Shown in pieces: positions 7,207 through 39,803 of a DNA stretch of 64,000 nt. The number at the start of each line of letters is the position of its first letter. Positions within the stretch are counted from its first letter, which is position 1. The position numbers and the translations under genes were made by a program. The stretch spans positions 133,378 to 197,377 of the forward strand of contig CAYZTD010000002.1 in NCBI GenBank assembly GCA_964481275.1, given 5' to 3'. This stretch comes from an uncultured Thermoplasmatales archaeon. GTDB taxonomy: Archaea; Thermoplasmatota; E2; DHVEG-1. The notes under the pieces are model-generated. The model was not told where the DNA came from. It saw nothing but the letters and a program-made list of their open reading frames with translations, and did no database searches.

Positions 7207-7607
7207 TATTTGTCACATCATTTTTTATATTTAATTATATTTATAAATAAAAATATATAAAGTTTGTGGAACTTTGATACTTGAAAAGAACGTTTTGCAA
7301 AATAATTAGATTAACTTATCACTAATAACTTTGTATAGTAATAAGTATATGAGTTATTATTAACAATCTATTTAGCTGATAAGTCGTCTACAAAAAGACC
7401 TACTGACTTTCTACCAGAATTCTTATAGATTATTTTTCGATTCTTTCTTAGTTTAACCATTTCTTTAAGTTCTTGAGTTATATCTTTCATTGTATATCAC
7501 CTCCGGTATATATAACAATTATTTTTCTTATACTATAGTAAGAAATCATTGTTGTTTAGTTATTGCATGTATTGAATCAATGCAAATTTATTTTTAAACA
7601 ACCAATT

Positions 7608-7808: not shown

Positions 7809-8096
7809 TTTTTTGTCACCTCCTCAGACTGTTATGTCTAAAGTGATAAAAAGAGCAAATAATAAAAAAATTCCAAAAAATTCGCAAAAAACGAAATTGT
7901 AATACTTTTATCTTTATTCTTTTCTATGCCTATATACACTCTACTTTCTTAAATAGTTATGCATTATAGAGTTATTGTGCAAAACTGAATAAACGTGCAA
8001 AGCCCCACACTACGGCTTTGCCCTAAAAGTCGATTTTGACTCAAAAGTCTAAGATTTGACCTAAAAGCAAAATAATTTAAAAAAAGAAGAAAGTTT

Positions 8097-8660: not shown

Positions 8661-8782
8661 AATTTTACCTCGCTCTAATATTAGAATACCCCCCCCCTAT
8701 TTAAAAGTTTTAGTGCAACATTCGAACAAAAAAAACAAGATATATTGCAACTTATCAGACATTTTTTAAAAATCTATTGGAA

Positions 8783-8971
8783 TTATTTTTTTATATGCCG
8801 TAATTTAAGAATAAGATCGTCCGCCTCTTTGTCTATCTCCCAACGTAGGATATCGCCTTTCTTAAGACCGAGCTGACTTATTGCAAAAGCTGGAACAGTA
8901 GTTCGTAAAGATGATCCTGTTGAAGTAGCTGCATGAAGTACTGTTTCATCTGCACGTGAATTCTTTGACAT
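8783..8971 (-). CDS. small AbrB/SpoVT-like (swapped-hairpin) DNA-binding protein
   Basis: 62 aa. The segment PAFAISQLGLKKGDILRWEIDKEADDLILKL resembles AbrB/MazE-type domains. Confidence 0.4.
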   Translation of the reverse strand: MSKNSRADETVLHAATSTGSSLRTTVPAFAISQLGLKKGDILRWEIDKEADDLILKLRHIKK

Positions 8972-9086
8972 AATTCAAATAATACACTTTGTTATATATA
9001 ACATTTTTTACCTATAGAATTACCTTATTATTTACCGTTATATTTATATATTAATACTATTTATAGGTAAATAAATAGGTAATAAA

Positions 9087-10286
9087 ATGTTAAATTCAGA
9101 AGAAAACAGACTTCAAAAAGCCCTTGCAATTCTATCACAAAAAGACGCTATACAGAGGATAGAAAACGGATTATACACAGTTAGATCACAGTCTGGAGTT
9201 GGAGTTTATAGACTTGAGGGACATGGACGAATTTGGTCATGTAATTGTCCAGATTTTATTAAAAATGGAAACATGAGACCATGTAAACATATCCTTGCAT
9301 TAAGACTTCATCTTGACATCGATTTCAAAGTTGAAAAAGGAGAAGAAAAACAACTTATTCCAATAACTTATTCACAAAATTGGACAGAATATAACAAAGC
9401 ACAATGTAACGAAATTGAACTGTTCGATAAACTATTATATGAATTAGTAGGAAGTTTGCCTGAATCTTTACAATCTTTAGGTCGACCAAGACATCAAATA
9501 AGAGACATTATTTTTTGTTCAATTCTTAAAGTATATAGCCAACTCAGTAGTCGTAGAGCGCAATGCTTGTTCAAACAAGCAGTTGAAGACAATCATATTT
9601 CTAAAAATATCCATTATAATGCAATTTCTCGAACTCTCTTAAAAAAAGAAATAACACCACTACTTTATGATTTGGTTAGATATTCTGCTAGACCTCTTGC
9701 TAGTGTTGAAACTGATTTTGCAATAGATAGCAGTGGTTTTAGATGTTCAACATTTGGAGAATATTGTAACTATGCACATGGAACTGCAAAGACTCATAAT
9801 TGGTTAAAAGTCCATATTTGCACAGGTGTAAAAACAAATATTATTGCAGATGTTGTAATAACAGATGAACATGGAGCTGACAGCCCACAGTTTAAAAAAT
9901 TAGTCCAGAGAACTGCTGACAATTTCCAAGTTAAAAAAATCGTTGCTGATGCTGCATATTCATCAAGCCTGAATCATGAAATTGTTGATAGACTTGGAGC
10001 AAAAGCATACATTCCTTTTAAAAAGAATGCAACAGGTGAATCCAAAGATTCAAAGATATGGACACATGCATATCATTATTTCCAGCTTAAAAGAGAAGAA
10101 TTTCTAGAGCATTATCATAAAAGAAGTAATGCAGAAACAACATTTTCTGCAATAAAAGCAAAATTTGGAGAGACAATAAAATCTAAAAATAGAACAGCAC
10201 AAATCAATGAGATGCTTTGTAAAATCATTGCATACAATATTACTGTTGTTATCCGGGAAATGATTGAATTTGGTTTTTATCTCTAA
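9087..10286 (+). CDS. DDE transposase (IS4/IS5-like DDE_Tnp_1) with an N-terminal SWIM zinc finger
   Basis: A SWIM-type CxCx(n)CxH motif is present (WSCNCPDF...RPCKHIL). The C-terminal DDE region (AIDSSGF..., IADVVITDEHGADS, YHKRSNAETTFSAIK) is typical of IS4/IS5 transposases. Confidence 0.75.
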   Translation: MLNSEENRLQKALAILSQKDAIQRIENGLYTVRSQSGVGVYRLEGHGRIWSCNCPDFIKNGNMRPCKHILALRLHLDIDFKVEKGEEKQLIPITYSQNWTEYNKAQCNEIELFDKLLYELVGSLPESLQSLGRPRHQIRDIIFCSILKVYSQLSSRRAQCLFKQAVEDNHISKNIHYNAISRTLLKKEITPLLYDLVRYSARPLASVETDFAIDSSGFRCSTFGEYCNYAHGTAKTHNWLKVHICTGVKTNIIADVVITDEHGADSPQFKKLVQRTADNFQVKKIVADAAYSSSLNHEIVDRLGAKAYIPFKKNATGESKDSKIWTHAYHYFQLKREEFLEHYHKRSNAETTFSAIKAKFGETIKSKNRTAQINEMLCKIIAYNITVVIREMIEFGFYL

Positions 10287-10517
10287 AAGAAATTAATGAA
10301 GGAAAGTATAGTTCTTCTTTATATTTTACAATCTTTTGACTTAAAAAGTTCTATTTTGACCTAAAAGTCTGACTTATAAGTTAGTTTTGAGGCAAAGCCC
10401 CACACTACCCTTAGACCCCTAGGTTTATACCTAATAACAGCAGAAATATTTATATATAAGTTCTTTAATCACATTTAAAAGCATATCGCAAACTATAAAA
10501 AACTTTTTGGGGAATAA

Positions 10518-11468
10518 TTGATGATAAAAAAAGCTAAGAAAAAAGAAAAACCAAATATTGAAGAGATAACTAGATGTCCTTCTTGTGGAAGCACACATCT
10601 TACAAAAGACTATTCTCGCGCTGAACTTGTATGTGAGGACTGTGGACTTGTAATAGATGAAGATTTCATAGATCATGGACCAGAATGGCGAGCATTTGAC
10701 TCTGAGCAACGTGAAAAACGTGCTCGTGTGGGTGCTCCTATGACATATACAATTCATGATAAAGGTCTTTCAACTATGATTGGTTGGAAAAACCGTGATT
10801 CATATGGAAAAAGCATCCCAACTAGAAACAGGGCTCAATTATATCGATTGAGAAAATGGCAAAGACGTATCAGAATTTCAGATGCAACCGAAAGAAACCT
10901 TGCTTTTGCATTATCAGAATTAGATCGTATGGCCTCTGGAATGGGTCTACCAAGAAACGTTAGAGAAACAGCTGCTATGATTTATCGTAAAGCTGTTCTT
11001 AAAAATCTTATACGTGGAAGAAGTATAGAAGGAGTTTCAGCAGCAGCATTATATGCAGCATGTAGACAATGTAACGTTCCAAGAACTCTTGATGAAATAG
11101 CAAATGCGAGTAGAGTTTCAAGAAAAGAAATAGGAAGAACATATAGATTTATAGCTAGAGAACTTGGATTAAAATTGATGCCTACATCACCACAGGATTA
11201 TATATCTCGTTTCTGCAGTATGTTAAAACTATCTGGAGATGTACAATCAAAAGCAATAGAAATTCTAAAAGATGCAGCAGACAAAGAACTTACAAGTGGT
11301 AGAGGACCTACTGGTGTTGCTGCAGCAAGTATCTATATTGCATCAATTCTTTGTGGAGAAAGAAGAACACAAAGAGAAGTAGCAGATGTCGCAGGTGTTA
11401 CTGAAGTTACAATCCGTAATCGTTACAAGGAACTTGCTGAAAGATTGGATATAGATATAATTCTATAA
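10518..11468 (+). CDS. tfb: transcription initiation factor IIB (TFB)
   Basis: N-terminal Zn ribbon (CPSCGS...CEDCG) followed by two cyclin-fold repeats. 316 aa, typical for archaeal TFB. Confidence 0.9.
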
Positions 11469-11489
11469 TCCATAATTTTTTTATTTTTT

Positions 11490-12098
11490 ATGACTCGCTG
11501 GTATTCTGAAAAAAAACGTGAACATTTTTACAAACAAGCAAAAAAAGAAGGATATCGTGCAAGATCAGCATATAAACTTAAACAGATCCAAAAAAAATTT
11601 AATATAATAAAAACTGGTGATTTAGTACTAGATCTAGGCTGTGCACCCGGCGGATGGAGTCAGGTTGCAAAAGAACTTGTTGGAAAAAATGGTAAAGTTA
11701 TCGGTGTTGATATTTTACCTGTTAAAAAAATAGATGATATCACTTTTATCAAAGGTGATATGACTAAAGATAACACAATAAATAATATCAAAGAAATTAT
11801 TTGTGAAAATAAAGTTGATACTGTTCTTTCTGATATGAGCCCTGACATATCTGGTAACTATGATATGGATCAAGCTCGTAGTATATATCTATGTACTAAA
11901 GCATTAGAAACTGCTGAAATTTTTTTAAAAAAAGATGGTATTTTTGTTTGTAAAGCGTTTGAAGGAAGAGACATTAATGACTTTATCGAAAAGTTAAAAA
12001 CTAAATTTAAATCAATTAAAAGATTTAGTCCTAAAGCATCTCGAAAAAGTAGTAGTGAAATATATATAATAGCTAAAGATAGATTGTATCAAAAGTAA
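11490..12098 (+). CDS. rlmE: 23S rRNA (uridine-2'-O)-methyltransferase RlmE/FtsJ
   Basis: RARSAYKL...DLGCAPGGWSQV is the FtsJ/RrmJ SAM-binding signature. 202 aa. Confidence 0.85.
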   Translation: MTRWYSEKKREHFYKQAKKEGYRARSAYKLKQIQKKFNIIKTGDLVLDLGCAPGGWSQVAKELVGKNGKVIGVDILPVKKIDDITFIKGDMTKDNTINNIKEIICENKVDTVLSDMSPDISGNYDMDQARSIYLCTKALETAEIFLKKDGIFVCKAFEGRDINDFIEKLKTKFKSIKRFSPKASRKSSSEIYIIAKDRLYQK

Positions 12099-12270
12099 TA
12101 TAAATTAAGAACCTATTAACGCCCATTAATATCAAAAAATTCGACAATATGTAAAAAAACAACCGAAAGTAATATGAAGTATTGTCTATAGATATTATAG
12201 ATAGAATTAAATATTACATACCAATTAAAATTTTATCTCGCCTGAAAAATTATGGAGGGAGGCATAAAAG

Positions 12271-25332: not shown

Positions 25333-26703
25333 ATGAAAAATAAGATACTAGTTGTTATTTTAGCATTGATAATATCTTTTTCTACAATTTCAATTGGAAA
25401 AACTATTGTAACAGAAAAGGAAAATAAAAAAAAATTTTTGAAACAAAATAATACTGTTAATTGGACTGTAATGTATTATTTATGTTGCGATTCTAATATG
25501 TATGATTATGGAGATATGATATTAGAAAATTTATCAAAATTCGGTTCAAAAGATGATTTCAATTTAGTAGCACTATATGATGGAATATACTATGGTGATT
25601 CAAAAGTAATATATTTTAATTATAAAGGTGAAAAAGTCATTTTAAATGATGTTATAGGATGGCCAGATGAAGTTGATTATAGTAACCCCATAGTTTTTGA
25701 AGAATACTGTAAAAAAGTAATCGAGCTTTACCCAGCAGAACATTATGCATTTATAACCTATGGTTCTGCTGGAACTGGATGGCAAATATATTGTGTTCAT
25801 GACAGAACTGATGGTAAAACTGGTTTTTCTATACCACGTCTTGGAAAGGCTTTTAAAAATATAACAAAAAATGGAGAAGAAAAAATAGATGTTATATTTA
25901 CCTCATGTGCAATGAATGCAATAGAACTTGCATATGAAATATCTTCATATGTGGATTACATTGTTGGAACTCAGGATTGTTTATCAAAAGATTTTCCCTA
26001 TAGATTCTATAAACCAATATGGTCTTTATATAATAATACAAGTTTAAACCCAGAAGAATTCGCAAAAATTGTACCAGAACAACTTAGACCCCTTTCATTT
26101 TTTTATAGAGAGTCATATGAAGGAAAATTACCTTTAATTAGTAAAATACTAAATAAATTACCATTTAAAGGACTTCATACAGTAATGCATCATGATAATA
26201 CCGGTGTTGTAAATAACTCGAATATTAATAGACTTATTCAATCTGTTGATGACTTATCAAGATATTTGGCTTTGGAAATTAAAGATAAAGAAATAATAAA
26301 TAATATAAAAACAGCAAGAGATAAAGTAAGAGAAAGCGGTAAATGTAATGTTAAATATAATTTTCTTCCAATTGTTTTAATTCAAAAAAATCTTTGTTTG
26401 GAATTTTTATCATATGATGCCTTTATTGATCTATATGATTTTTGTGAAATATTAAAAAATACAACAGAAAATGATTTTTTAAAAATATACTGTGGATATG
26501 TTATGAAAAACATGAATTTAACAGTTCCATATATTAAAACTACAGAAAATGATCCTTTACATGGATTAAATATTTATTTTCCAGAAAATAAAAGAATGTA
26601 TAATATGGATCTTTTAAATGGTCCACTTCCTTGTTTATATGAAGAATTATTTTTTTCAAAAGATACGTGTTGGGATGAATTTCTAAAAGCCTATTACAAC
26701 TAA
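25333..26703 (+). CDS. secreted clostripain-like (peptidase C11 family) protein, possibly lacking the catalytic His
   Basis: Signal peptide present. It aligns to the 35834..37429 C11 paralog. Catalytic-Cys context TSCAM matches DACLM, but the WDHGSGW His motif is replaced by YGSAGTGW. Confidence 0.65.
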   Translation: MKNKILVVILALIISFSTISIGKTIVTEKENKKKFLKQNNTVNWTVMYYLCCDSNMYDYGDMILENLSKFGSKDDFNLVALYDGIYYGDSKVIYFNYKGEKVILNDVIGWPDEVDYSNPIVFEEYCKKVIELYPAEHYAFITYGSAGTGWQIYCVHDRTDGKTGFSIPRLGKAFKNITKNGEEKIDVIFTSCAMNAIELAYEISSYVDYIVGTQDCLSKDFPYRFYKPIWSLYNNTSLNPEEFAKIVPEQLRPLSFFYRESYEGKLPLISKILNKLPFKGLHTVMHHDNTGVVNNSNINRLIQSVDDLSRYLALEIKDKEIINNIKTARDKVRESGKCNVKYNFLPIVLIQKNLCLEFLSYDAFIDLYDFCEILKNTTENDFLKIYCGYVMKNMNLTVPYIKTTENDPLHGLNIYFPENKRMYNMDLLNGPLPCLYEELFFSKDTCWDEFLKAYYN

Positions 26704-26830: not shown

Positions 26831-28687
26831 ATGGGGAATAAAGAAAGGGTATTTAGAACTATTTTAGTTGCATTTTTTATGCTGTCTATAGGAACAAGTA
26901 GTTTTTTTATAGAAAATAATGTTAAAGCCGATGAGGAAACAGATTTTCTATCCGGAAGAGATATAGAACTTCTTTGTGGATTTGTTCCACCAGATAACTG
27001 GTGGAAGGATGCAAATTTTTATTTTATGAAATCATCAGGGGGTCAACCATCAAGTTTTGACTGGCGTGATAAAGGGGGAGTAACCCCTGTTAAAGATCAG
27101 GGAAATTGCGGCAGTTGCTGGGCTTTTGGAACTGTGGCACCACTGGAAAGCGCTATAAAAATACGTGAAGGAATAACTGTTGATCTGTCAGAACAATGGC
27201 TTGTTAGCTGCAATCGTGATGGATGGGGTTGTGGTGGTGGCTGGTGGGCTCATAACTATCATCAATGGAAAACAGGTAAATGCGGAGGATTTGGAGCAGT
27301 ACTTGAGGATGATTTTCCATATAGCGCTTCAGATGAATCCTGTGGTGGTCCATATGATCATCCATATATAGTTGAGGATTGGGCTTTTATAGGTGGAGAA
27401 GGAAGTGTTCCTCCAACAGAGGATATAAAACAAGCAATAATTGACTATGGTCCAGTTTCAGCAGCCGTGCGGGTTACAAATGACTGGAATGGTTATGATG
27501 GAAGTTATGTTTATGACAATGACGCCTCTGGAAATGTAAATCATGCAATAACTATTGTTGGATGGGATGACAACATGGGATCTGACGGTGCGTGGATTAT
27601 CAAAAATAGCTGGGGTCCTAGATGGGGGGACAACGGTTACATGTACATCGAATATGAATGTAGCCGTGTTGGATATTCAGCTTGTTTCGTAAATGGCTAT
27701 CACGGACCTCCAATTGAAAGCAAGGAAAAAATAACATTTACTGTAGAAGAAATAACAAACGATCCAAATAGAGGAAATTTTGATCCCATCGAACCACCTT
27801 TTAATAAACCAGAATGGTATTATCGAGTCGGAACTGCAGTATCAGGTGAGACCAAACAGCAATTTAACTATAACATGTGGACTGAAAATCTTGGAAATTT
27901 TGGATATAATTCAGAATATACTTGGAAACCACAAGAAAATCATGTTTTTTATACAGGTGAACCAACAATTGATGTAACATTTAAGCTAATGGAAAATGAT
28001 AAATTTTTTGAAGAGGGAATAATTTTTAAAGATGATCTTGCTGATGTAAGTGCTTTTCCTGGTGGAGGAAAAGATAATGATATATCTGATTATAGACCTG
28101 CAATTTATCATGGAACATACAACCTTGTCACAGGTGAACTAACAGGTGATGATACATCTGGTCCTGACTCCCAAGGAAATTATATAACTTTGGGTGATGG
28201 AATCAATAATGCAAAGGTATGGTTTAAGATAACAGATAGTTACAATGAGGATTTGTATGAGCCAGATATCCATGTTTCACCATCAAAATTAAGTTTTGGA
28301 GAAGTGAATCAGGGTGAAAATCCATCAAAAACATTCTCGATTGAAAACCTAGCTAATTTTGATGAAAACGAATGGCAAAAGCTAGATTGGACTGCATCTG
28401 ATAACAAAAATTGGATAAGTCTTAGTAAAACATCTGGTTCTTTAAATGGTGGACAGAGTGACATAGTTGCAGTTACATTAGATACAGATCAACTTCAAAA
28501 AGGAAATGATTACTCTGGAACAATAACAGTAGATTCAAATGATGAAACAAAAACAATAAGCGTCAGTGTGACAATCAAAAAATCATCATCAATAGAAAAT
28601 CCATTTTACATCTTTTTACAGAATCTTTACCAAAAAGTCATTGAATTCTTACAGAGATTAATGCCAAACAACATTCTAAATCTGTAA
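26831..28687 (+). CDS. secreted papain-family (C1A) cysteine peptidase with C-terminal extension domains and the shared tail
   Basis: Catalytic triad contexts are present: QGNCGSCWAFG (Cys), NHAITIVGWDD (His) and IIKNSWGPRWG (Asn). Signal peptide present. A C-terminal ~160-aa domain is shared with 34039.. and 37419.. proteins. The tail is ENPFYIFLQNLYQKVIEFLQRLMPNNILNL. Confidence 0.85.
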   Translation: MGNKERVFRTILVAFFMLSIGTSSFFIENNVKADEETDFLSGRDIELLCGFVPPDNWWKDANFYFMKSSGGQPSSFDWRDKGGVTPVKDQGNCGSCWAFGTVAPLESAIKIREGITVDLSEQWLVSCNRDGWGCGGGWWAHNYHQWKTGKCGGFGAVLEDDFPYSASDESCGGPYDHPYIVEDWAFIGGEGSVPPTEDIKQAIIDYGPVSAAVRVTNDWNGYDGSYVYDNDASGNVNHAITIVGWDDNMGSDGAWIIKNSWGPRWGDNGYMYIEYECSRVGYSACFVNGYHGPPIESKEKITFTVEEITNDPNRGNFDPIEPPFNKPEWYYRVGTAVSGETKQQFNYNMWTENLGNFGYNSEYTWKPQENHVFYTGEPTIDVTFKLMENDKFFEEGIIFKDDLADVSAFPGGGKDNDISDYRPAIYHGTYNLVTGELTGDDTSGPDSQGNYITLGDGINNAKVWFKITDSYNEDLYEPDIHVSPSKLSFGEVNQGENPSKTFSIENLANFDENEWQKLDWTASDNKNWISLSKTSGSLNGGQSDIVAVTLDTDQLQKGNDYSGTITVDSNDETKTISVSVTIKKSSSIENPFYIFLQNLYQKVIEFLQRLMPNNILNL

Positions 28688-28702: not shown

Positions 28703-29422
28703 TTATCTATTTTTTTTCTTAATTTCCTTAGCTGGAATCCCACCATATATCTTGCCCTTTTTTAGAATCTGGTCTTTTCTAACTACTGCTCCTGACGCCA
28801 ATTTAACATTATCTTGTATTATTGCACCAGGCATAATAACTGCACCTGCACCTATTACAACATTATTTCCAATTTTTACAGATTTCATAGTTATAGTTCC
28901 TTTTTCATAATCGTGAATATGACCATAAATTACAGAAAATAAACCCATAGTACAATTATCTCCAATCTCTGTTAAACAAGGATCCATAATTGTTCCACCA
29001 ACAAGACTGTTTTTACCGATTTTCATGCCAAGTAATCTATAATATCTATCTTTCATACCTCCCATAGAAAAAATTTCAAGTATTTTTCTCATAGGAGTAT
29101 ATAAAACACATATAATAATCCATTTTAGACTGTTTTTATTTTTATAGTTGTATTCATAAACACCTGGTTTGTACTTGATATTAAAAAGATGAATAAACAA
29201 TCCCGATATTAATAACTGAAAAAATAAAGTTATAAATATTCCTATATATATTAAAAAAGGAATTAAAAATAGTTGCCAATTTTTTGTAAATGTAAGAAAT
29301 AAAAATATAAATTTAACATATAAAACAAGAGGTGAAAATCCCATAGAAAAAATTACAAGCGCTATTATTGAAATTAATATTGGGCCAGTAATTTTACCTG
29401 ATTTTTTTTTCTTTTTAACCAT
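28703..29422 (-). CDS. membrane-anchored hexapeptide-repeat (LbH) acyl/acetyltransferase
   Basis: N-terminal TM helices. C-terminal left-handed beta-helix repeats (IGNNVVIGAGAVIMPGAIIQDNVKLASGAVV). Confidence 0.7.
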   Translation of the reverse strand: MVKKKKKSGKITGPILISIIALVIFSMGFSPLVLYVKFIFLFLTFTKNWQLFLIPFLIYIGIFITLFFQLLISGLFIHLFNIKYKPGVYEYNYKNKNSLKWIIICVLYTPMRKILEIFSMGGMKDRYYRLLGMKIGKNSLVGGTIMDPCLTEIGDNCTMGLFSVIYGHIHDYEKGTITMKSVKIGNNVVIGAGAVIMPGAIIQDNVKLASGAVVRKDQILKKGKIYGGIPAKEIKKKNR

Positions 29423-29431
29423 AAAAACCTC

Positions 29432-30700
29432 TTATAATTCTATTTTTTCGTATTCTTCATTTGCCATTTTAATAAAATTGTAATATTTTTCTGGGTTATT
29501 TCTGTTTAGATTATTTATAGCTTTTTTTTGAAAATTTATGGCATTTTTAAAAAAGATTTGATTTTTACAACTTAAATTCATTCCTAAATATCTTTGATAT
29601 TTATTAAAAGTAATTTTAGTATAGTTAAAACATCTGTCAGATAGATTTTTTTCAACTAATTTTTTTTCTTCAGTAAACATCTGTGATTTACTACCTTCTT
29701 TACAATCTATGTAATAAGGTCTGACATTGTTGTTTTCTATCCATATCCATCTTTCTTCTCCTTTCATTAATGGGAAAATATAATCTGTTTTTGTATCATT
29801 TTCGTCTTGTGGATAACATATACGATTAATTATCTGTCTTTTAGTTTCGTATGGAGTTTCACCTTTGGTTGTATCAAGTAAGACCCAGCCATAGTCTGGA
29901 ACATAGTATTCAACCATATAATGCATCTGAGTCCAAAAACCTTGATCATTATTTACAAGTAAAACTCTTGATGGAATGTTTTTGTTTCTTAAAAGTGCAC
30001 AGGCCAGATGAGACCTACCTACATTCTCTCCATTAATAAAAAGAGTAGTTAATGCATCTTGTGAAAAAAAGAGTCCTGTTCTTAATTGTATTAAAAACAA
30101 TATGGATCTATGGTTTTTAATAAAAGAAGAAACCCGATCTGCGTAACTAATCAGATTGTTATGAAATAATTTTATTTGCATAGCTTTTAATTTTATGAAG
30201 ATATTGTTAGTTTGAACTACATCTGTTTCAGATAGCCATTTCTTTGTGTTTTTTGGGAGGTTTTCTTTTTCTTGAAATTCAACTGTTTCAGGTAATTCAT
30301 TGAATTCCTTATTTTCAACTAATACCCATACTGTAAAATGAATAAGTTTTTTTTCATCTTTATACATTTTATTTACTGTAAAATTTACAAATTTATTAGG
30401 TTCTAAAGTGTCATTTATTATTCTATAATTTATTATATCTGCTGTACTGTCATTATATATTTCTAGCAGTATTGGTACTTGATAATTATAGATTGGTGGA
30501 AATGCATAGCTAATGTTAAAGACGTCTGTGTTTTCTTCGGCTAAAAGATCAAGATAGTGTTCAACTCTTAATAAAAATATTTCAGATTTAGTATTGATGT
30601 TTTTCTTTATATCTATTGAAGCAACTTTAGCATTATAAAAAAAACTAAGCGAGATAAGAAAAATAGTTATCAATATAACTAATTTTTTTTTCTTCGACAT
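29432..30700 (-). CDS. secreted transglutaminase-like cysteine protease-fold protein
   Basis: Signal peptide present. The transglutaminase-core Cys/His/Asp contexts are present (GRSHLACALL, QMHYMVEYYVPDYGWV, LLDTT). Confidence 0.6.
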   Translation of the reverse strand: MSKKKKLVILITIFLISLSFFYNAKVASIDIKKNINTKSEIFLLRVEHYLDLLAEENTDVFNISYAFPPIYNYQVPILLEIYNDSTADIINYRIINDTLEPNKFVNFTVNKMYKDEKKLIHFTVWVLVENKEFNELPETVEFQEKENLPKNTKKWLSETDVVQTNNIFIKLKAMQIKLFHNNLISYADRVSSFIKNHRSILFLIQLRTGLFFSQDALTTLFINGENVGRSHLACALLRNKNIPSRVLLVNNDQGFWTQMHYMVEYYVPDYGWVLLDTTKGETPYETKRQIINRICYPQDENDTKTDYIFPLMKGEERWIWIENNNVRPYYIDCKEGSKSQMFTEEKKLVEKNLSDRCFNYTKITFNKYQRYLGMNLSCKNQIFFKNAINFQKKAINNLNRNNPEKYYNFIKMANEEYEKIEL

Positions 30701-30765
30701 ATACTTTTATCATTCCATTTATTTAATTTTATAAAAAATTATATATATCATAGTATTTAAAAGGT

Positions 30766-32346
30766 TTATGTTGATTTTTTAGCAACTATAACAAATTTCC
30801 AATCTTCTTTACTAACTTGTTTATAAATTATCTCAAAATTTGATTTTTCAACTAATCTAGATGCATTATCAATTGTAAAGGCGGTTTTATAAGCATCAGT
30901 AAAATAACTAACAGTTTTAAAATCAGTTGTTTTAAAAATCCATTTCAATCTTAAAATAAATAACTTCCATTGCGGAAAATTTTTATTTAAAGCTTCAATT
31001 ATAAGCTTTCCTCCTGGTTTTAATATTCTATTAATTTCTTTTATGCTTGCAAGTGGTTTTTTCCAGTAAGAAAGACTAAAGCGACTTACCACAATATCTG
31101 CAAAATTGTTTTCGAATGGCATATTTTCAGAAGAAGCTAAAATTGTTTCTATATTAGCGTTTTTTCTTGCAAGTTCAAGCATATATTCTGATTTATCAAC
31201 ACCAACGACTTTTGCTTTAGGAATCAATTTATTAATTTCTTTAGCTAAAAGACCGGGACCTGTACCTAAATCAACAATGGTAGCTTGTTTAATCTTTTTA
31301 TCGATATTTTTTTTAACAATTTTTGCAAGATTTTGATAAAGATTAGAATATTTCATCATGTATTTTTCGAAACGATTACAAATTTTTTTATCTAATATTT
31401 TTTTTTCTTCTAATCTTTTTGTTTCATAAAATGTTACAAAAGATCCTATAACGCTAGGTGTAATCCATAATATTACATAACAAAACAAAGAAAAACTAAT
31501 CACTTGTTCTACTGAAATACTTGAATCATAAAAATTAAACATAGTAATAAGTGCTACTTCTCTTGTTCCTATACCATATATCGAAACTGGAATAGATGCA
31601 ATAACATCACTTACAGCTATAATCATAATAAAATAAAAAATAGGAATATTTATCAAAAATAATTTAGCAATAAAAAACAAAAGAATATACTTCAAAAACC
31701 AGTTAAATAGTGAAATTCCAAAAGGATATAGAACATCTCTAAATTTGGGTAGATCCTCATAAAAACTATCTACAGATTTCTCTAAACGATTTTTTATTGT
31801 ATTAAAAATTTGAGACTTTATTAATTTTGAAAATAAATTTTTAGATCTTTCTTTTTTAAAAAAAAACATGTATAATAGTATAATTATGACAAAAATAGCT
31901 AGAATTATAAGCAATAAATATGGATAAATGCTGCTAAGAACTATGGCACCAAGAGCACCAAAGACAAGCATGGCTGTGAATTCAACTGTATTAAATATTA
32001 TGATATTCGAAAGGCATTTTGGAAGCGGGGCACGACTTTCGTCTGATAGATATATAGATTTTGTATATGCACCAAATCCACCTGGTGTTATAAAACCATA
32101 AAAATATCCTATAAAAAAATTTTTTAGAGAATACCAAAAACTAACCTTAATCTTTTGTCTTTTTAAAAGAATCTGCCATTCAACATTTGCAATTAAAACC
32201 AAAGGAATTAAAACAAAAAAAGAAAAAAACGAATAAAATGGATTGATTTTTTGAAAAATTTCTAAAATCCTATTAAAATTCAATTGACTTAAAATTAATA
32301 TAAATATGATAATACCAATTAGAGGTAATAATTTTTTAATTTTCAT
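30766..32346 (-). CDS. fusion of a lysylphosphatidylglycerol-synthase-like/flippase-like TM domain with a class I SAM methyltransferase
   Basis: The N-terminal ~320 aa is polytopic, in the UPF0104/LPG_synthase_TM style. The C-terminus has SAM motif I (VDLGTGPGLLAKEI) and post-I (VVGVDKSEYMLELARKN). Confidence 0.65.
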   Translation of the reverse strand: MKIKKLLPLIGIIIFILILSQLNFNRILEIFQKINPFYSFFSFFVLIPLVLIANVEWQILLKRQKIKVSFWYSLKNFFIGYFYGFITPGGFGAYTKSIYLSDESRAPLPKCLSNIIIFNTVEFTAMLVFGALGAIVLSSIYPYLLLIILAIFVIIILLYMFFFKKERSKNLFSKLIKSQIFNTIKNRLEKSVDSFYEDLPKFRDVLYPFGISLFNWFLKYILLFFIAKLFLINIPIFYFIMIIAVSDVIASIPVSIYGIGTREVALITMFNFYDSSISVEQVISFSLFCYVILWITPSVIGSFVTFYETKRLEEKKILDKKICNRFEKYMMKYSNLYQNLAKIVKKNIDKKIKQATIVDLGTGPGLLAKEINKLIPKAKVVGVDKSEYMLELARKNANIETILASSENMPFENNFADIVVSRFSLSYWKKPLASIKEINRILKPGGKLIIEALNKNFPQWKLFILRLKWIFKTTDFKTVSYFTDAYKTAFTIDNASRLVEKSNFEIIYKQVSKEDWKFVIVAKKST

Positions 32347-32404
32347 TTTTTAAACAAATAAAATATACTATTTACATTAAAAACTTCTTTGAATTTTTAA
32401 AAAT

Positions 32405-33031
32405 CTACTTTTTCAAAAAATAATATGATATCCAAGAGGATGTAGGAAAGGGTTTATTTCCCATCTTTTTTATAATTTTTATGTCTTTATACTCTTCAGC
32501 GATTTTTAAAATTATTTTACTGATATCATCCTGTTCTCTAACAATTATTTTTGTATCTTTCTTAGATTTTTCAAAAATATTTTTTAATATCTTTGTTTTT
32601 GGTATCGAACAACCTGAAACAATTATCGTATCAAATTCTTCAATAGAAAAACTTGCGCCGTCTCCTTCTTTAATCACTATATTGTTATCAAGTTTTTTTT
32701 CAAAAATTATTTTTCTTGCTTTTTTTACAGCTTTTTTATTATTGTCAATTGCCACTATATTACTATCTTTTATTCTAGAAAAGGCAATAGCTGATATCGG
32801 ATAAGAACCACAGCCTATATGTAAAATATTCTTTGAATTATTTAAACCAAAATTATTTATTTCTTTTTCATATTCTTTAGAGATAGTTTTTTCATAAATT
32901 TTTCCAATTTTCTCATTCATAAAAGATAAATTATCAACAACTTTCCAGAATAAATTTGATTTTTTTATTCTATATCTATCTATAAAAGAATAAGTATTTT
33001 TTAAATTAACATTTTTTTTATCATTTGTCAT
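32405..33031 (-). CDS. class I SAM-dependent methyltransferase
   Basis: Gly-rich SAM motif ILHIGCGSYPISAIAF and an acidic loop VAIDNNKKAV. Confidence 0.55.
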   Translation of the reverse strand: MTNDKKNVNLKNTYSFIDRYRIKKSNLFWKVVDNLSFMNEKIGKIYEKTISKEYEKEINNFGLNNSKNILHIGCGSYPISAIAFSRIKDSNIVAIDNNKKAVKKARKIIFEKKLDNNIVIKEGDGASFSIEEFDTIIVSGCSIPKTKILKNIFEKSKKDTKIIVREQDDISKIILKIAEEYKDIKIIKKMGNKPFPTSSWISYYFLKK

Positions 33032-33110
33032 TATAGATTTTCTTCCGATTTTTTATGATAATATATTCTTTTAATACTAAATAAATTTCTCAAAAATGTA
33101 AATATCTATC

Positions 33111-33665
33111 TTAACAATTTATTATTCTTTTTTCAGTGACAATTATCTCAACTGGTTTGTCATGTTTATTTATTGGTATTTTATTTATTATCTGAAATTC
33201 AAAAGTAAGACCTATAGTTTTTGCATTTGTTTTTTTAAGTAATCTATCATAGTAACCTTTTCCGTGTCCAAGTCTATTTCCTTTTTTGTCAAATGCTAAT
33301 CCTGGAACTATTATTAAATCAATTTCATCAATTGATATTTCTTTTATACATTCTTTTTTTGGCTCTAAAATATTATGTGAACCAAGACATAGTTCTTCCC
33401 AACTTTTAAGATTTGATAAAGTAAGAGAACGGTCATTTTTGTTACTAACTGGTACAACAATATTTTTTTTATAAAGCAGTTCACAAATCATATCGTGAGT
33501 AAAAACCTCAGCGTCATAAGAAATATAAAAAAGAATAGTATCTGCATCCCTGAATTCTGTTAATCCAAACAATCTTTCTTTTATTTCTTTGCTTTTTTTT
33601 CTATTTTCTTCTTTTGAAAGTCCTCTTCTTTTTTCTTTTATTTCTTTTCTTATCTTTTCTTTCAT
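33111..33665 (-). CDS. 5-formyltetrahydrofolate cyclo-ligase (MTHFS) family protein
   Basis: C-terminal GLAFDKKGNRLGHGKGYYDR is the 5-FTHF cyclo-ligase signature. Confidence 0.75.
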   Translation of the reverse strand: MKEKIRKEIKEKRRGLSKEENRKKSKEIKERLFGLTEFRDADTILFYISYDAEVFTHDMICELLYKKNIVVPVSNKNDRSLTLSNLKSWEELCLGSHNILEPKKECIKEISIDEIDLIIVPGLAFDKKGNRLGHGKGYYDRLLKKTNAKTIGLTFEFQIINKIPINKHDKPVEIIVTEKRIINC

Positions 33666-34038: not shown

Positions 34039-35802
34039 ATGAGTTCAAATAAAAATACTAATAATCTTTTTGTAAAAAAGTTGATAGTAAAGAAAATATC
34101 TATATTAACTATAATTTTTTGTTTATTAACAATTTCATTTTTTAACCCTCTTACTATGGCATTACAATCAAAAAGTGAAATTTTAGAAAAAAATAGGGAA
34201 TTATCATTGGGAGATGGAATAGATTTTTCAATTGTTATACATAGGATAGAACAAATTGACGAAATAGATCCTTCTATACATGGTGAAGCTGATTGGACCT
34301 TAAGGATGTATGTAAACAACCAAAAACAAACTTTTGAATGTGAGGGGGATTCAGTTGTAGTTGATAAATGTTTTACTTGGGAAAAAATAATACAAGATGA
34401 CACAGAAGAATTAGATATAAAAATGGAACTAAAAGATAGAGATCCTTGGCCTGATGTTGATGATATAGCAGATATAAGTGCTTATCCTGATCTTTCTTAT
34501 GAAGATAAAGATTATGATGATACAACCGATTTTGAAAATAATAGACCTGCAGTTTTCAAAAGAACATATAATATACTAAATAAAACCTGGAAAGATGAAG
34601 ACGAAGAAAACGATTATTTAAAATGGGATGATGATTCAATTTTAGGGTGGTGGATTACTTCAGGTATTTTTGATGGGAGTACTAATAGAGACGAAAATGA
34701 TGCTCAGATATGGTTTAATATTTCTATAGAAAATAAACCTCCTTATCCACCAGAAAAACCTTCAGGTCCTACAATAGGATGGGAAAATACGGTATATGAA
34801 TTTAGCACAAAATCTCACGATCCAAATGGAGAAAAAATCCAATTTGGGTGGGATTGGGATTTTGATGGTGAAGTTGATGAAATAACTGGATTCTATGAAT
34901 CATGGGAAACCGCCAGTATTTATCATAGTTGGTCTAAAGCAAAAATTTACCATATACGTGTTTTAGCCATAGACTCACATGGTTTAACTAGTGAATGGTC
35001 TGAACCACTTAAAATTGAGATAAACGGCATTAATGGCAAATCAGGAATGGATATTCAAGATTGGAGTATGGGCCATGTTTATTCAATTTATTTTAATCAT
35101 CATGAAACCCAGGAAATAATAAGATCCCTAAGAAGTGGGGGAAATATTGTAGCAGCTGTTGCGACAATAATCACAACAATTGCAGCGATGAGTGGTGTAC
35201 CACTTGATATAAGCGCGGCGACAGCACTTGCTGGAGCTATAATACGTTTAGGAGTAGAAGTTATAAATTTAATGGATCATGGAATGGGAATATATGTCCG
35301 AATATATTTGGTTGAGATTGAAGGAGTGCCTATTGCATATTTTGCATATATATGGTCTCAATCTATGACTGCTAACGAGGGTGAATCTCCTGAAGGAAAT
35401 AAATCACCAGATGTCCCTTCTAAACCAGAATGCGATTCAAACTTTTTCTTAGTAGAAAATGAATATACTTTTACATGCCAAGCTACTGATCCAGATGGAG
35501 ATAAAGTTAATCTTCTTATTAGTTGGGGGGACGAAAATTACACTTGGACTGATTTAGTAAATTCAAATACTGAAATAACTGTTCACCATAAATGGAATAA
35601 AAAAGGATCCTATAATGTTAAAGTAAAAGCATTTGATGAATATGGAAATGAAAGCAGTTGGTCTGAATCTCTAACACTGAAAGTAAGTAAGGCTAAATCA
35701 AAATCAACAATTAATCTTAGTTTAAGAGAAAATTTATTTCTTACAATTTACAAAATATTAAATTTATTTGAGAAAAATTTTACAGATTTAATACCAAAAT
35801 AA
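34039..35802 (+). CDS. secreted PKD-domain protein carrying a shared ~160-aa unknown domain and the shared C-terminal tail; first gene of a three-gene secreted operon
   Basis: Signal/anchor sequence present. Unknown domain (ADWTLRMYVNN...DDIADISAYPD...NRDENDAQIWFNI). PKD domains (PPEKPSGPTIGWENTVYEF...FGWDWDFDG; LISWGDENYTW...VKVKAFDEYG). The tail is NLFLTIYKILNLFEKNFTDLIPK. Confidence 0.8.
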   Translation: MSSNKNTNNLFVKKLIVKKISILTIIFCLLTISFFNPLTMALQSKSEILEKNRELSLGDGIDFSIVIHRIEQIDEIDPSIHGEADWTLRMYVNNQKQTFECEGDSVVVDKCFTWEKIIQDDTEELDIKMELKDRDPWPDVDDIADISAYPDLSYEDKDYDDTTDFENNRPAVFKRTYNILNKTWKDEDEENDYLKWDDDSILGWWITSGIFDGSTNRDENDAQIWFNISIENKPPYPPEKPSGPTIGWENTVYEFSTKSHDPNGEKIQFGWDWDFDGEVDEITGFYESWETASIYHSWSKAKIYHIRVLAIDSHGLTSEWSEPLKIEINGINGKSGMDIQDWSMGHVYSIYFNHHETQEIIRSLRSGGNIVAAVATIITTIAAMSGVPLDISAATALAGAIIRLGVEVINLMDHGMGIYVRIYLVEIEGVPIAYFAYIWSQSMTANEGESPEGNKSPDVPSKPECDSNFFLVENEYTFTCQATDPDGDKVNLLISWGDENYTWTDLVNSNTEITVHHKWNKKGSYNVKVKAFDEYGNESSWSESLTLKVSKAKSKSTINLSLRENLFLTIYKILNLFEKNFTDLIPK

Positions 35803-35833: not shown

Positions 35834-37429
35834 ATGAAAACTAATAAATTACTTTTAATAGCAATTTTTTTTATGCTGTTAAACACGTTAATAGCTAATG
35901 CAGGTTATGTACGAATTGGAGGAAATGAAAACAAATTTTTTGATAATTTAAAACTAGAGACTTCTTCTAATTCTAAATGGACTGTCATGGTTTATATGGA
36001 TGCAGATAATGATCTTGAACAATTTGCAATATATAATTTCTTACAGATGTCTGAAATAGGATCAACAGATGAAGTAAATATTGTTGTTCAACTTGATAGG
36101 ATTCCTGGCTATGATAACAGTTATGATGATTGGACCTCGGCTAAACGTTATTACATTCAGAAGAATATGGTACCAAACTCCAACAGTGCTTTAATGGATA
36201 TTGGGGAAGTAGATATGGGGGATTGGAATACATTAAAAGATTTTTACAATTGGGCTGTTTATAATTATCCTGCAGAAAAATATTGTCTCATTCTCTGGGA
36301 TCATGGTTCAGGCTGGAAAATGGGTGGAGAAACGACTTCTCCCTTTAAATGTATCTGTTCAGATTTTACAAATGGTGGAGTTATGTCTCTTCAGGATTTA
36401 AAAAATGGTTTAGATTCGATAACCCAACAAGGTAGAAATCCAATAGATTTAATATGTTTTGATGCTTGTTTAATGCAGATGATTGAAGTAGGATATGAAA
36501 TTAGATATTGTGCAGATTATATGACTGCCTCAGAGGAAGTTGAAACTGCTTATGGTTTAACCTATGATGATGCACTTTATCTATTAACTGAAGATGCTAA
36601 TGTTTCAGCTGATATCCTTGGAAGTTATTTTGTTAATTCTTATAAATATGAAACAATGTCAACAGTAGATCTACAAACTTTTGATTATCTAAAAGATGCG
36701 GTTAATAATTTAGGTAGCCACTTACAAGCTGAGGAATATAAGAGTTATATCAAGAATGCTATAAGGGATGTTGAGACCTATTACGATTATGATTTTGTGG
36801 ATTTATATGATTTTGCAAATCTATTAAAAAATTATATAGATGATTCAAATATCGATTATAAAGCAGATATGGTCATGGCTGGAGTAAATCAAGCTGTGCT
36901 TTATGAAAAACATGATTATAATCATCAAAGATCTCATGGTATCTCAATATATATGCCCTATAGAGAGTATGATTTTGCTTATGGTGATATTAGTTTTGCT
37001 ATGGATTCTTCATGGGATGAGTTTGTTATGTGGTATTTTGGCGGTAGTACAGGTAACGAACCAGAGATTCCTGAGATTGATGGTCCCGGATCTGGTAGTG
37101 TAGGGGTAGAATACGGCTATAGATTTCTTTCATCCGATCCTGATGATGACGATATATATTATTATGTTGAATGGAGTGATGGACAGAGTAGTGGTTTAAT
37201 TGGTCCTTATCCTTCAGGACAAGAAATTGTTTTATATCACAGCTGGGAAAATGAAGGATGGTATTTAGTTAGGGCAAAGGCAGTAGACGAGCATGGCCAT
37301 GAAAGTGATTGGAATCAATTAAATGTTGGAATGCCTAAGAAAAAATGTGTTTTTAAACAAAATACTATTCTGTTTTATTTATTTGAAAAATTTTTTGAAA
37401 AAATAACTGATTTATATTTTGGAGTGTGA
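35834..37429 (+). CDS. secreted clostripain-family (C11) cysteine peptidase with a C-terminal PKD domain and the shared tail
   Basis: Signal peptide present. Catalytic-dyad contexts LILWDHGSGW (His) and LICFDACLMQ (Cys). PKD domain (EIDGPGSGSVGVEYGYRF...YYYVEWSDG...RAKAVDEHG). The tail is NTILFYLFEKFFEKITDLYFGV. Confidence 0.85.
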   Translation: MKTNKLLLIAIFFMLLNTLIANAGYVRIGGNENKFFDNLKLETSSNSKWTVMVYMDADNDLEQFAIYNFLQMSEIGSTDEVNIVVQLDRIPGYDNSYDDWTSAKRYYIQKNMVPNSNSALMDIGEVDMGDWNTLKDFYNWAVYNYPAEKYCLILWDHGSGWKMGGETTSPFKCICSDFTNGGVMSLQDLKNGLDSITQQGRNPIDLICFDACLMQMIEVGYEIRYCADYMTASEEVETAYGLTYDDALYLLTEDANVSADILGSYFVNSYKYETMSTVDLQTFDYLKDAVNNLGSHLQAEEYKSYIKNAIRDVETYYDYDFVDLYDFANLLKNYIDDSNIDYKADMVMAGVNQAVLYEKHDYNHQRSHGISIYMPYREYDFAYGDISFAMDSSWDEFVMWYFGGSTGNEPEIPEIDGPGSGSVGVEYGYRFLSSDPDDDDIYYYVEWSDGQSSGLIGPYPSGQEIVLYHSWENEGWYLVRAKAVDEHGHESDWNQLNVGMPKKKCVFKQNTILFYLFEKFFEKITDLYFGV

Positions 37430-39803
37430 TTTATTGAAACTTGTAAAAATTTTGTTTGTAGTAGTTCTGTTGTTAACATGCAGTTCTTCAGTGGTATCAA
37501 TATATAACAAAAAAAATTTAGAAACAAACGACGTAGGATATGATACTTCAGCTGAATTACCTACATGGAATAAGGGTAACTATTGGAAATATGATATGGA
37601 TTTTGGTTTTATAGTTCGCAATAATGGTTTTAAAGAATTTTCTGTAGTTGCATCAATTAATAATATGAATGCTAGAGTAACAAATACCATTAATTACGAA
37701 GATGATGAAGTTTATGTTTTGTTGCTAGATGGTGATATTTCAGGTAAGATTTTTATTCTTGGCGAGATTGATTTAGCAGATATCGATGCAGACTTAGATG
37801 GAGTTGCATATATTTCTACTTCAACACTTGGCATTAAATATTTTAATTTCGATGTTGAAGGCAAAGTTAATTTGGTTGGTTGGCGGGATATAGATTTTGA
37901 TATGGTTATGAATTTTGTTCCTGAGTTTAACTTCTTTGATTTTCCTATAAATGTAAAAGAGGATCCATGGGAGGTTTATATTGATGAAGCATCTCTTTCT
38001 GCAGATGTTTATGTTGATCTTCCAGGGCCTTTTGATTTTAGAGATAGTTATTCCTCCTCGATGGTTTTTAATGATAACATGTCGATTAATAGAACTGAAA
38101 CTATAGATATTCCTGCAGGTATTTTCGAAACCATTGTCATAGATGGAAGTTGGGGTTATTATTCTAACCTTTATTATTCTGATTGTGTTGGTTATTTGGC
38201 AAAAATTGTAGAAAGATTATATTGGCCAGAAAATGAAGGGCAAATCGAATCGATTTTTAATTTAGAATTAATTGAAACAAATTTTGATGGAGGTAATATT
38301 CCTCCTAATAAACCAGATCGACCCTATGGGCAAACTGATGGTATAGCTGAAGAAGAATATCAATACAGAAGTGAGACTACTGATCCTGAAAATGAAAAAA
38401 TATATTACCTTTTTGATTGGGGTGATGGTACAGATAGTGGATGGGTTGGCCCTTACAATTCGGGGGATCAAGTTATAGTCTCTAATAGATGGTATAATAA
38501 AGGCATTTATTCAGTAATTGTTAAAGCAAAAGACGAAACGGGTATCGAAAGTTTATGGTCTGATCCCTTAATTGTAAAAATAATGGGGGATCCAAATGTA
38601 GATGTATTTGTTTGTAATGTAACAAATTCTGGAATGGATGATATTGATGTGGGATCAGATCCTGAATGGTATTATATGGTTCATGCAGAAAGTAGTGGTT
38701 TAAGTTCTCCTCCTGAATTTAATTATAATACAGATGATGGAACTGAAAATGGGAACTGGATTAGTGAAAAAACTTGGGAGGCCAAAAAGAACCATAGATT
38801 TAAAGGTTACAGTCGTAATGTTACAATAAAGCTAAAGCTTATGGATCATGATGACAGATGGGAAGATCCTATCTATGCAGCAGATGATCTTGCAGATGTA
38901 AGTGGATGTATTGGAGGTGGGGTTGATCAAGATACTCCCAATAAACGTGGAGCTATGTATTATGGGACATATGATTTGGTTGAAAATAAATTAAAAGATT
39001 TTCAGACTGGAGATCCTTTGGAAAATGCAGATTACGTTTACAAAAAAAATGATTATTACATTACAGCTGGAGATCATATACCAGATGAAAGTTATAACGA
39101 GGATGAAAATGATGCTAAGATTTGCTTTAAGCTTTTTAACGATTATGAAAAACCAATTGTGAATGCTAGAATTTTAAATGAACCTGAAAGAATCAGACCA
39201 ATGCAAAATCTTCAATTTGTAGGATCAGTTCAAAATGGTGCTCCTGAGTATAAATGGTCCTGGGATTTTGATGATGGAACAATTTTAAAAGATGATCAAA
39301 AACCAGAACATAGTTTCCAAAATAAAGGAACTTATGATGTAACATTAACATTGACAGATGGATTCAATATAGATAGCATTTTTAAGCTAAATGTAAAAGT
39401 AGAAAACTATGATCCAGTTCTTACAGATGACAAAGTAAAATTTGATGGAAAAGGAGATTTAGACGATACATTTACTTTTTCGGTGAATTACCAAGATTTG
39501 GATGGAGATGATCCTGATGTAAAAACAGTTGTTATAAATGGGAAATCATGGAATCTAAATGGTTTTGGAGCAAATTCTGAATATAGTTTGGCCCTAAAAG
39601 GTAGAGACATTGGTCAGGGTAGTCATGAATTTTATTTTTATTTTGAGGATGGTCATGGTGGTAGTGCACAAACTGAACCTAAAAACTTAGAGGTAAGTAA
39701 AACAAAAGTAAAAACAGATACTTTCTTTCTGAAATTAATGACTTTCTTCAAAGAAAACATTCTTTCTAAAATTGTGAATCTCAATCATATCACATTAGGT
39801 TGA
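37419..39803 (+). CDS. large secreted multi-domain protein (PKD domains, shared ~160-aa unknown domain, shared tail)
   Basis: The ORF overlaps the upstream gene, and the track start is TTG. Signal peptide-like N-terminus. PKD domains (PPNKPDRPYGQTDGIAEEEY...LFDWGDGTDSGW...VKAKDETG; a second near SWDFDDGT). Unknown domain (PEWYYMVHAE...DDLADVSGCIGGG...NEDENDAKICFKLF). The tail is TFFLKLMTFFKENILSKIVNL. Confidence 0.8.
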   Translation: MECDLLKLVKILFVVVLLLTCSSSVVSIYNKKNLETNDVGYDTSAELPTWNKGNYWKYDMDFGFIVRNNGFKEFSVVASINNMNARVTNTINYEDDEVYVLLLDGDISGKIFILGEIDLADIDADLDGVAYISTSTLGIKYFNFDVEGKVNLVGWRDIDFDMVMNFVPEFNFFDFPINVKEDPWEVYIDEASLSADVYVDLPGPFDFRDSYSSSMVFNDNMSINRTETIDIPAGIFETIVIDGSWGYYSNLYYSDCVGYLAKIVERLYWPENEGQIESIFNLELIETNFDGGNIPPNKPDRPYGQTDGIAEEEYQYRSETTDPENEKIYYLFDWGDGTDSGWVGPYNSGDQVIVSNRWYNKGIYSVIVKAKDETGIESLWSDPLIVKIMGDPNVDVFVCNVTNSGMDDIDVGSDPEWYYMVHAESSGLSSPPEFNYNTDDGTENGNWISEKTWEAKKNHRFKGYSRNVTIKLKLMDHDDRWEDPIYAADDLADVSGCIGGGVDQDTPNKRGAMYYGTYDLVENKLKDFQTGDPLENADYVYKKNDYYITAGDHIPDESYNEDENDAKICFKLFNDYEKPIVNARILNEPERIRPMQNLQFVGSVQNGAPEYKWSWDFDDGTILKDDQKPEHSFQNKGTYDVTLTLTDGFNIDSIFKLNVKVENYDPVLTDDKVKFDGKGDLDDTFTFSVNYQDLDGDDPDVKTVVINGKSWNLNGFGANSEYSLALKGRDIGQGSHEFYFYFEDGHGGSAQTEPKNLEVSKTKVKTDTFFLKLMTFFKENILSKIVNLNHITLG

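Follow-up and report, generated by a model that had tools for sequence, protein, structure and literature searches.

Three exported proteins share a domain of about 190 residues

The DNA analysed here, a 64-kb window from an uncultured Thermoplasmatales archaeon (contig CAYZTD010000002.1 of assembly GCA_964481275.1, positions 133,378 to 197,377 of the forward strand), encodes three proteins, called A, B and C below, whose translations each begin with a typical signal peptide, in which a hydrophobic stretch comes after a basic n-region (Table 1). An earlier reading of the window, made from the letters alone (the sequence-only reading), had reported at these same three genes a recurrent domain of about 160 residues that it could assign to no family, and had described it as acid-rich and perhaps a calcium-binding β-sandwich. 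It had also proposed fold modelling with a Foldseek search, a survey of the domain's distribution, and an analysis of its co-occurrence with the C-terminal tail of the proteins. Comparison of the copies bears out that one domain is common to all three: copy C matches copy A with a BLASTP E-value of 6e-27 (39% identity over 163 amino acids (aa)) and copy B with 4e-8. A profile of the three copies, scanned against all six frames of the window, found just these three, with copy B, the most divergent of them, at E=4.9e-70 and the next best match at E=0.9.

The region originally outlined was the right one, but it was too short. The domain spans 185-195 residues and by translation starts some 20-25 residues earlier, because the first β-strand and the first conserved aspartate of loop 1 belong to it. 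Pfam assigns a papain-family peptidase C1 domain (aa 73-277) and a BACON/Ig-like domain (aa 480-581) to protein A, a PKD domain to protein B (aa 469-549) and another to protein C (aa 587-650), leaving the shared region uncovered. The domain had been said always to lie upstream of or between PKD domains; copy C does lie between two PKD-type domains, whereas copy A is followed by the BACON/Ig-like domain and not by PKD. Domain residues are numbered here on copy C, with residue 1 at aa 390 of the protein.

The conserved blocks listed for the domain hold as a common set only in part. DD[LI]AD[VI]S is present in all three copies and is the hallmark of the family: among 124 family domains, the set behind all conservation figures below, D104 is aspartate in 100% and S106 is serine in 99%. 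The W-Y-[YM]-V block, in contrast, appears as W-Y-Y-x-V in copies A and C but as W-T-L-R-M in B; GTY[ND]L is found in A and C while B has KRTYNI; and DENDA is found in B and C while A has the short loop GINNA.

The domain is predicted to adopt a C2 fold

A model built from a 51-sequence alignment (A3; predicted local distance difference test 93.1, predicted template modelling score 0.89) is an eight-stranded antiparallel β-sandwich with the strand connectivity of C2 domains, in support of the β-sandwich guess. When this model was compared with the full PDB using Foldseek, the top 50 matches were all C2 domains (E from 7e-5, probability 1.00), with target template modelling scores of ~0.6-0.67 against isolated C2 domains; an earlier low-confidence model had also ranked mainly C2 domains at the top. 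Structural alignments extended over 121-124 residues for type-II C2 domains (cPLA2, Munc13 C2B, PLC) and over 103-105 residues, at lower Z (7.5-8.0), for the type-I synaptotagmins. Moreover, the domain opens directly with the strand preceding the first acidic loop and closes with an extra strand. From the longer alignments to type-II domains and the strand order at both ends, we infer that the modelled domain has the type-II topology. Identity to C2 domains in the structural alignments was 7-13%.

Weak but register-consistent support for a link to C2 domains came from sequence comparisons. A profile of alignment A3 searched against PDB sequences ranked synaptotagmin-1 (Syt1) and synaptotagmin-7 first (E=0.003-0.02), with the alignment spanning β1 to loop 3. 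As a reference set, eight C2 sequences were each validated as PF00168 (E 3.7e-12 to 2.7e-33) and then aligned. Comparison of A3 with this set by hhalign gave a borderline probability of 60.7% (P=8.3e-5, score 32.9 over 83 columns). Column-shuffled C2 alignments scored 10.0±2.0 (n=60, maximum 15.2) and a reversed alignment scored 11.4, placing the real score ~11 standard deviations above the shuffled controls. The register of the hhalign alignment (to cPLA2) was the same as that of the HMMER alignment to Syt1 C2B. Reciprocally, when a hidden Markov model (HMM) of the eight C2 domains was run on the family, 20 of the 124 domains outscored every one of 248 reversed or shuffled controls. Each of these sequence tests is borderline alone; because sequence tests and fold point together in the same direction, common ancestry with C2 domains is the better reading, and we hold it to be highly probable.

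Conserved acidic residues coincide with C2 calcium ligands

Aligned with Syt1 C2B, residues D21, E27, D87, D89 and D101 of the domain fall on the Ca2+ ligands D303, D309, D363, D365 and D371, respectively. These five predicted ligand positions are acidic in 94-99% of family domains (loop 1: D21 98%, E27 94%; loop 3: D87 99%, D89 99%, D101 97%), as is the additional loop 1 residue D18 (96%), and G162 is glycine in 100%. Acidic residues at the five ligand positions are typical of Ca2+-dependent C2 domains and not of every C2 domain. Because acidic residues are conserved specifically at these positions, Ca2+ binding by the domain is likely. The earlier guess of Ca2+ binding thus stands, but not on its original basis of general acidity. 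The net charge of the domain is about -20, against a family median of -24; per 100 aa it comes to -10 to -16, compared with -6 to -16 in almost all extracellular segments of the host proteins (one C11-like peptidase segment has -2). Since other extracellular segments are similarly acidic, overall acidity is a property of these exoproteins rather than a mark of the domain, and it was rejected as evidence for Ca2+ binding.

A hydrophobic residue is present at the tip of loop 1 in 84% of members and at the tip of loop 3 in 88%; an aromatic residue is found in 58% for loop 1 and, as W, F or Y, in 59% for loop 3. Loop 3 varies in length (0-16 residues between D-x-D and DDLAD), and loop 2 is long (residues 48-67). 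Within an insertion between β7 and β8, D149 is acidic in 91% and D167 in 86%, while N175 and D176 are D, E or N in 96-98%. The acidic loop of this insertion has the consensus TSGDYDGSTxxDENDA and exists in long and short variants; in copy A and its relatives the short variant GDGINNA is found and the acidic loop is missing. In type-II C2 domains the β7-β8 connection and the Ca2+-binding loops share one end of the sandwich, and by this analogy the acidic loop probably extends the metal-binding tip.

Table 1. Positions in the window of the host genes, the C2-like domains and the features discussed in the text
Feature	Position	Strand	Description
Host gene A	26831-28687	+	618 aa; signal peptide, papain-like C1 peptidase, C2-like, BACON-like, C-terminal tail
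Host gene B	34039-35802	+	587 aa; signal peptide, C2-like, PKD-like, hydrophobic region without Pfam match, PKD, C-terminal tail
Host gene C	37419-39803	+	794 aa; signal peptide, ~270-aa N-terminal region without Pfam match, PKD-like, C2-like, PKD, Ig-like region, C-terminal tail
C2-like domain, copy A	27716-28282	+	aa 296-484; between peptidase C1 and BACON/Ig-like domain; from translation
C2-like domain, copy B	34210-34761	+	aa 58-241; directly after signal peptide; from translation
C2-like domain, copy C	38586-39173	+	aa 390-585; between two PKD-type domains; from translation
Predicted Ca loop 1, copy C	38637-38666	+	DDIDVGSDPE, residues 18-27; conserved D18, D21, E27
Predicted Ca loop 3, copy C	38844-38897	+	DHDDRWEDPIYAADDLAD, residues 87-104; D-x-D ending β5, variable hydrophobic/aromatic tip, DDLAD
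β7-β8 insertion, copy C	39000-39116	+	residues 139-177; β-hairpin and acidic loop ending DENDA; secondary structure from model
C-terminal tail	28586-28684 (A), 35689-35799 (B), 37334-37426 (C11 peptidase of 35834-37429), 39699-39800 (C)		
N-terminal region of protein C	37506-38318		aa 30-300
Hydrophobic mid-region of protein B	35029-35433		aa 331-465
C11 peptidase genes	25333-26703, 35834-37429		signal peptides
Overlap of C11 peptidase gene and gene C	37419-37429		11 nucleotides
Divergent gene block	28703-33665	-	between surface-protein genes

A small archaeal family outside current domain models

The three window copies gave no Pfam match at E<=10, PF00168 included. Among 51 diverse members nothing was significant and PF00168 was absent at E<=1, the best single-member matches being to B9-C2 (E=0.019) and C2_CAPS (E=0.14); neither the window copies nor the 51 members matched NCBIfam. 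The family therefore falls short of the PF00168 gathering threshold; it lies outside PF00168 and the other Pfam models of the C2 clan and should be given its own family within that clan. The sequence-only reading had judged the domain unassignable, which is true of curated Pfam and NCBIfam models but not of fold and superfamily, by which the domain is assigned to C2. It had further stated that a confident match to a described domain would remove the novelty: such a match was obtained for fold and superfamily, but not for any Pfam family. The described domains it had offered as examples, a carbohydrate-binding module (CBM) or a cadherin-like family, were supported by no test performed here. A cadherin-like reading of DENDA was likewise rejected, as in the model the motif sits in an intradomain loop before the last strand and not in a linker. 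No cadherin family was found in Pfam at E<=1 (window copies and 51 members) or among the top fold matches.

When 1.84 billion cluster representatives were searched exhaustively with HMMER, 173 proteins matched at E<=1e-3, 95 at <=1e-10 and 15 at <=1e-30, indicating that the family is small but genuine. A word-indexed homologue search returned 0 matches with a single domain, 9 fragments with the 3-sequence profile and 1 with the 51-sequence profile; it was the exhaustive search that brought the family to light. Where source names exist, members of the family are called "hypothetical protein [Thermoplasmata archaeon]" or "PKD repeat protein", and the named members belong to Thermoplasmata or Thermoplasmatales. 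One 2887-aa protein with 15 short matches (P0064) was set aside as a spurious match, being a repeat protein. Scanning GTDB species genomes with one peptide pattern from a 12-sequence alignment located 11 loci, a lower bound biased towards close relatives; 10 are in Thermoplasmatales or Thermoplasmata archaeon metagenome-assembled genomes (MAGs) and 1 is in a "Euryarchaeota archaeon". An orthologue of protein A, 83% identical and with the same C-terminal tail, is encoded in an "uncultured Thermoplasmatales archaeon" MAG (L005), which makes the source of the window a close relative of that lineage. The window has a guanine plus cytosine (GC) content of ~30% and 9 of the 11 related loci have 31-35%; GC-rich genomes also hold the family (L010, 55%; L012, 56%).

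Literature searched for prokaryotic or archaeal C2 domains contained no account of such an archaeal extracellular C2 family, although a prior description is possible. By fold and ligand pattern the domain is a C2 and thus not a new kind of domain. What appears to be new is an archaeal, extracellular, protease-linked C2 family that has its own insertions and an invariant DDLAD[IV]S motif and is unannotated in public records.

The domain is carried by exported and often anchored proteins

The module always lies within exported proteins, often together with a peptidase and often in a membrane-distal position. In 75 full-length members the accompanying domains were PKD (47), peptidase C1 (18), S8 (9) and C14 (5), and CarboxypepD_reg (9); a few carry BACON or other Ig-like domains, and ChitinaseA_N-type domains co-occur as well. 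A role as a protease prodomain or inhibitor was rejected, as most family members lack a peptidase domain. The co-occurrence with the C-terminal tail extends beyond the window: among 156 members, 82 end in an amphipathic tail, as assigned by a simple rule, 24 in a transmembrane (TM) anchor, and 50 are truncated or of another type, so that at least 106 of the 156 have a candidate surface anchor. Of the 24 TM-anchored members, 22 have the domain at the N-terminus, immediately behind the signal peptide, and thus at the distal end of the chain.

The tail itself comprises 30-37 residues, in which a stretch rich in F, L and I and broken by charged residues comes after a basic patch (K/R-x-K); it is amphipathic rather than a TM helix. 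Tails of relatives show a clearer "...L-x-R-F-P-x-L-x-x-L-L..." core. No Pfam or NCBIfam match to the tail was found, and it may constitute an undescribed archaeal surface-anchoring or sorting signal.

A proposed calcium-dependent docking module and its alternatives

According to the model that we propose, the host proteins would be exported by the N-terminal signal peptide seen in their sequences and probably held at the cell surface by the basic amphipathic tail or, in other members, by a TM anchor. Loop 1 (D18, D21, E27), loop 3 (D87, D89, D101, D104) and the β7-β8 insertion (D149, D167, N175, D176) would cluster at one tip of the domain, the placement of the insertion following from type-II C2 topology, and at least two Ca2+ ions are predicted to bind to this near-invariant acidic cluster. 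In a type-II C2 domain the N- and C-termini both emerge at the other end; the binding tip would therefore face away from the adjoining domains of the protein. Speculatively, the Ca2+-loaded tip, flanked by the hydrophobic and aromatic residues of loops 1 and 3, could form a docking surface for the attached peptidase or PKD modules. The likeliest targets would be the head groups of lipids or some other anionic surface, on cells or on particles of detritus, and docking there might bring the peptidases to their substrate.

We assign a probability of roughly 0.55 to the reading that the module is a very divergent type-II C2 domain, displayed outside the cell, whose Ca2+-binding tip docks peptidases and PKD proteins. 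Several observations weigh against it. Sequence identity to C2 domains is only ~10% and the profile E-values are borderline; the Pfam C2 model detects no member of the family among the window copies and the 51 diverse members; copy A lacks the acidic β7-β8 loop, so the extra site is not essential; and a net charge of ~-20 would oppose binding to an anionic membrane unless cations screen or bridge it. Ca2+-binding β-sandwich domains of secreted subtilases act as structural stabilisers, and here too the C2 fold and its Ca2+ might only rigidify the exoprotein against unfolding or autoproteolysis, with no external ligand. Purely structural Ca2+ sites would account for the conserved acidic cluster just as well, the domain is often placed mid-chain between peptidase and Ig-like domains, and neither a basic patch nor any other clear ligand signature was found in this strongly negative domain. 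However, the distal N-terminal location in all but two of the TM-anchored members is typical of a recognition module, and exposed hydrophobic or aromatic residues persist at the tips of loops 1 and 3 in 84-88% of members although loop length varies, which would not be expected of a purely structural site. A structural spacer is an unlikely explanation in our view, and docking through the Ca2+-binding tip is preferred.

The external ligand could instead be a glycan or another polymer of detritus or cell envelopes, recognised on a C2-like scaffold by the aromatic tips together with Ca2+, much as Ca2+-dependent CBMs recognise glycans with bound Ca2+. The aromatic loop tips of ~59% of members would suit this role, as would the co-occurrence with BACON, ChitinaseA_N-type and PKD domains, and weak partial profile matches to the CGTase starch-binding domain (E=0.03-0.3 over ~50 residues) were observed. 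Similarity to CBM20 was rejected, the match being partial, weak and without support from the fold, and no CBM family gave a significant sequence or fold match to the domain; we consider a carbohydrate- or polymer-binding module very improbable. Orthogonal to the question of function, an acidic β-sandwich might have evolved separately and reached the C2 topology without common ancestry. The lack of a match to the Pfam C2 model, the low identity in structural alignments and an hhalign probability of only 61% are what such convergence would predict. Against this, three independent methods give the same register, all five Ca2+-ligand positions fall on conserved acidic residues, the hhalign score stands far outside the shuffled controls, and the reciprocal C2 HMM separates real from control sequences, so that convergence appears quite improbable and a divergent C2 domain remains the preferred identity.

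Gene neighbourhood and further regions of the host proteins

The C2-like proteins of the window are flanked by two peptidases of the clostripain family (Pfam C11), both with signal peptides; together with the papain-like protein A these make up a cluster of exported cysteine peptidases. Extracellular C11, C25, C1A and S8 peptidases are reported to be carried and expressed by Thermoprofundales/MBG-D and to be a hallmark of such sediment Thermoplasmata (PMC6461988). Gene C is called from a TTG start, and its first 11 nucleotides are also the last of the C11 peptidase gene before it; this overlap suggests that the two genes are co-transcribed, and they are possibly also translationally coupled. 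A distant lineage shows a similar association between neighbouring genes: on a metagenome contig of 56% GC (L012), a gene for a 1413-aa protein with two tandem N-terminal C2-like domains and a TM anchor adjoins a gene for a 1745-aa papain-family protein (the two genes lie at 2304-7541 on the minus strand and at 8001-12242), and the link to C1 peptidases thus extends there to the level of gene neighbours.

The surface-protein genes of the window are separated by a divergent block on the minus strand. It encodes a membrane protein with hexapeptide acyltransferase repeats, a transglutaminase-core protein with a signal anchor, two methyltransferases, one of them fused to a lysyl-phosphatidylglycerol-synthase-type TM domain, and a 5-formyltetrahydrofolate cyclo-ligase. 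The lipid- or envelope-modifying genes may be functionally linked to the adjoining surface-tethered proteins.

Two further regions of the host proteins were without a Pfam match. The ~270-aa N-terminal region of protein C had none at E<=0.01; judged by length and domain position, it is apparently common to family members such as P0012 and P0014, and it may represent another unassigned extracellular domain. The mid-region of protein B is hydrophobic and rich in Ala, Gly and Ile, and family members P0017 and P0039 end in sequence similar to it ("...DRGRGIYF..YILEI.G.P...YIWSQ").

Comparison with known systems

C2 domains are a main coupling of Ca2+ to membranes in eukaryotic cells, where the intracellular forms are usually seen as characteristic of membrane trafficking; to our knowledge they are rarely discussed outside eukaryotes. 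The family described here adds a data point on where the C2 module arose or how far it has travelled. It also offers a testable hypothesis for how protein-degrading sediment archaea of the Thermoplasmata type place surface peptidases on their substrates, and it permits annotation, in ~170 protein clusters, of a ~190-residue block that now goes under "hypothetical" or "PKD repeat protein". A further possibility, which we regard as rather improbable, is that the family is a genuine prokaryotic extracellular C2 branch with a complete Ca2+-ligand set, either antecedent to the intracellular eukaryotic C2 domains or an ancient exchange partner of them. If so, a Ca2+-dependent membrane-docking C2 would have existed on archaeal surfaces, with proteases and adhesin-like proteins latching onto foreign membranes or necromass.

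Relative to eukaryotic C2 domains (PF00168; type-II as in cPLA2, Munc13-1 C2B and PLC-δ/ζ), the archaeal domain is ~60 residues longer: loops 2 and 3 are both long, loop 3 varies in length, and the β7-β8 insertion contributes an extra acidic loop. It also bears the additional invariant motif DDLAD[IV]S. It is extracellular and fused to peptidases or PKD domains, whereas the partners of eukaryotic C2 domains are signalling or trafficking modules. In perforin, the partner of the C2 domain is the pore-forming MACPF domain rather than a peptidase or PKD module, and membrane binding by the archaeal domain is a proposal.

In calpains, a papain-fold cysteine peptidase is followed by a Ca2+- and lipid-responsive β-sandwich of C2 type. 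Protein A has an analogous order, with its peptidase preceding the C2-like domain, as for the C2-like domain III of calpains and the C-terminal C2 domain of calpain-5/6 (for the calpain-5 C2 domain, see bioRxiv 10.1101/2022.01.25.477766). The peptidase families differ (C2 in calpains, C1 papain in protein A), calpains are intracellular, and the top fold matches revealed no particular likeness to calpain domains. Clostridium perfringens α-toxin is a secreted prokaryotic enzyme with a β-sandwich that docks to membranes in a Ca2+-dependent manner. Its C-terminal domain is of the PLAT/LH2 type, often called "C2-like", and the likeness to the archaeal family is that of a secreted prokaryotic protein equipped with a β-sandwich.

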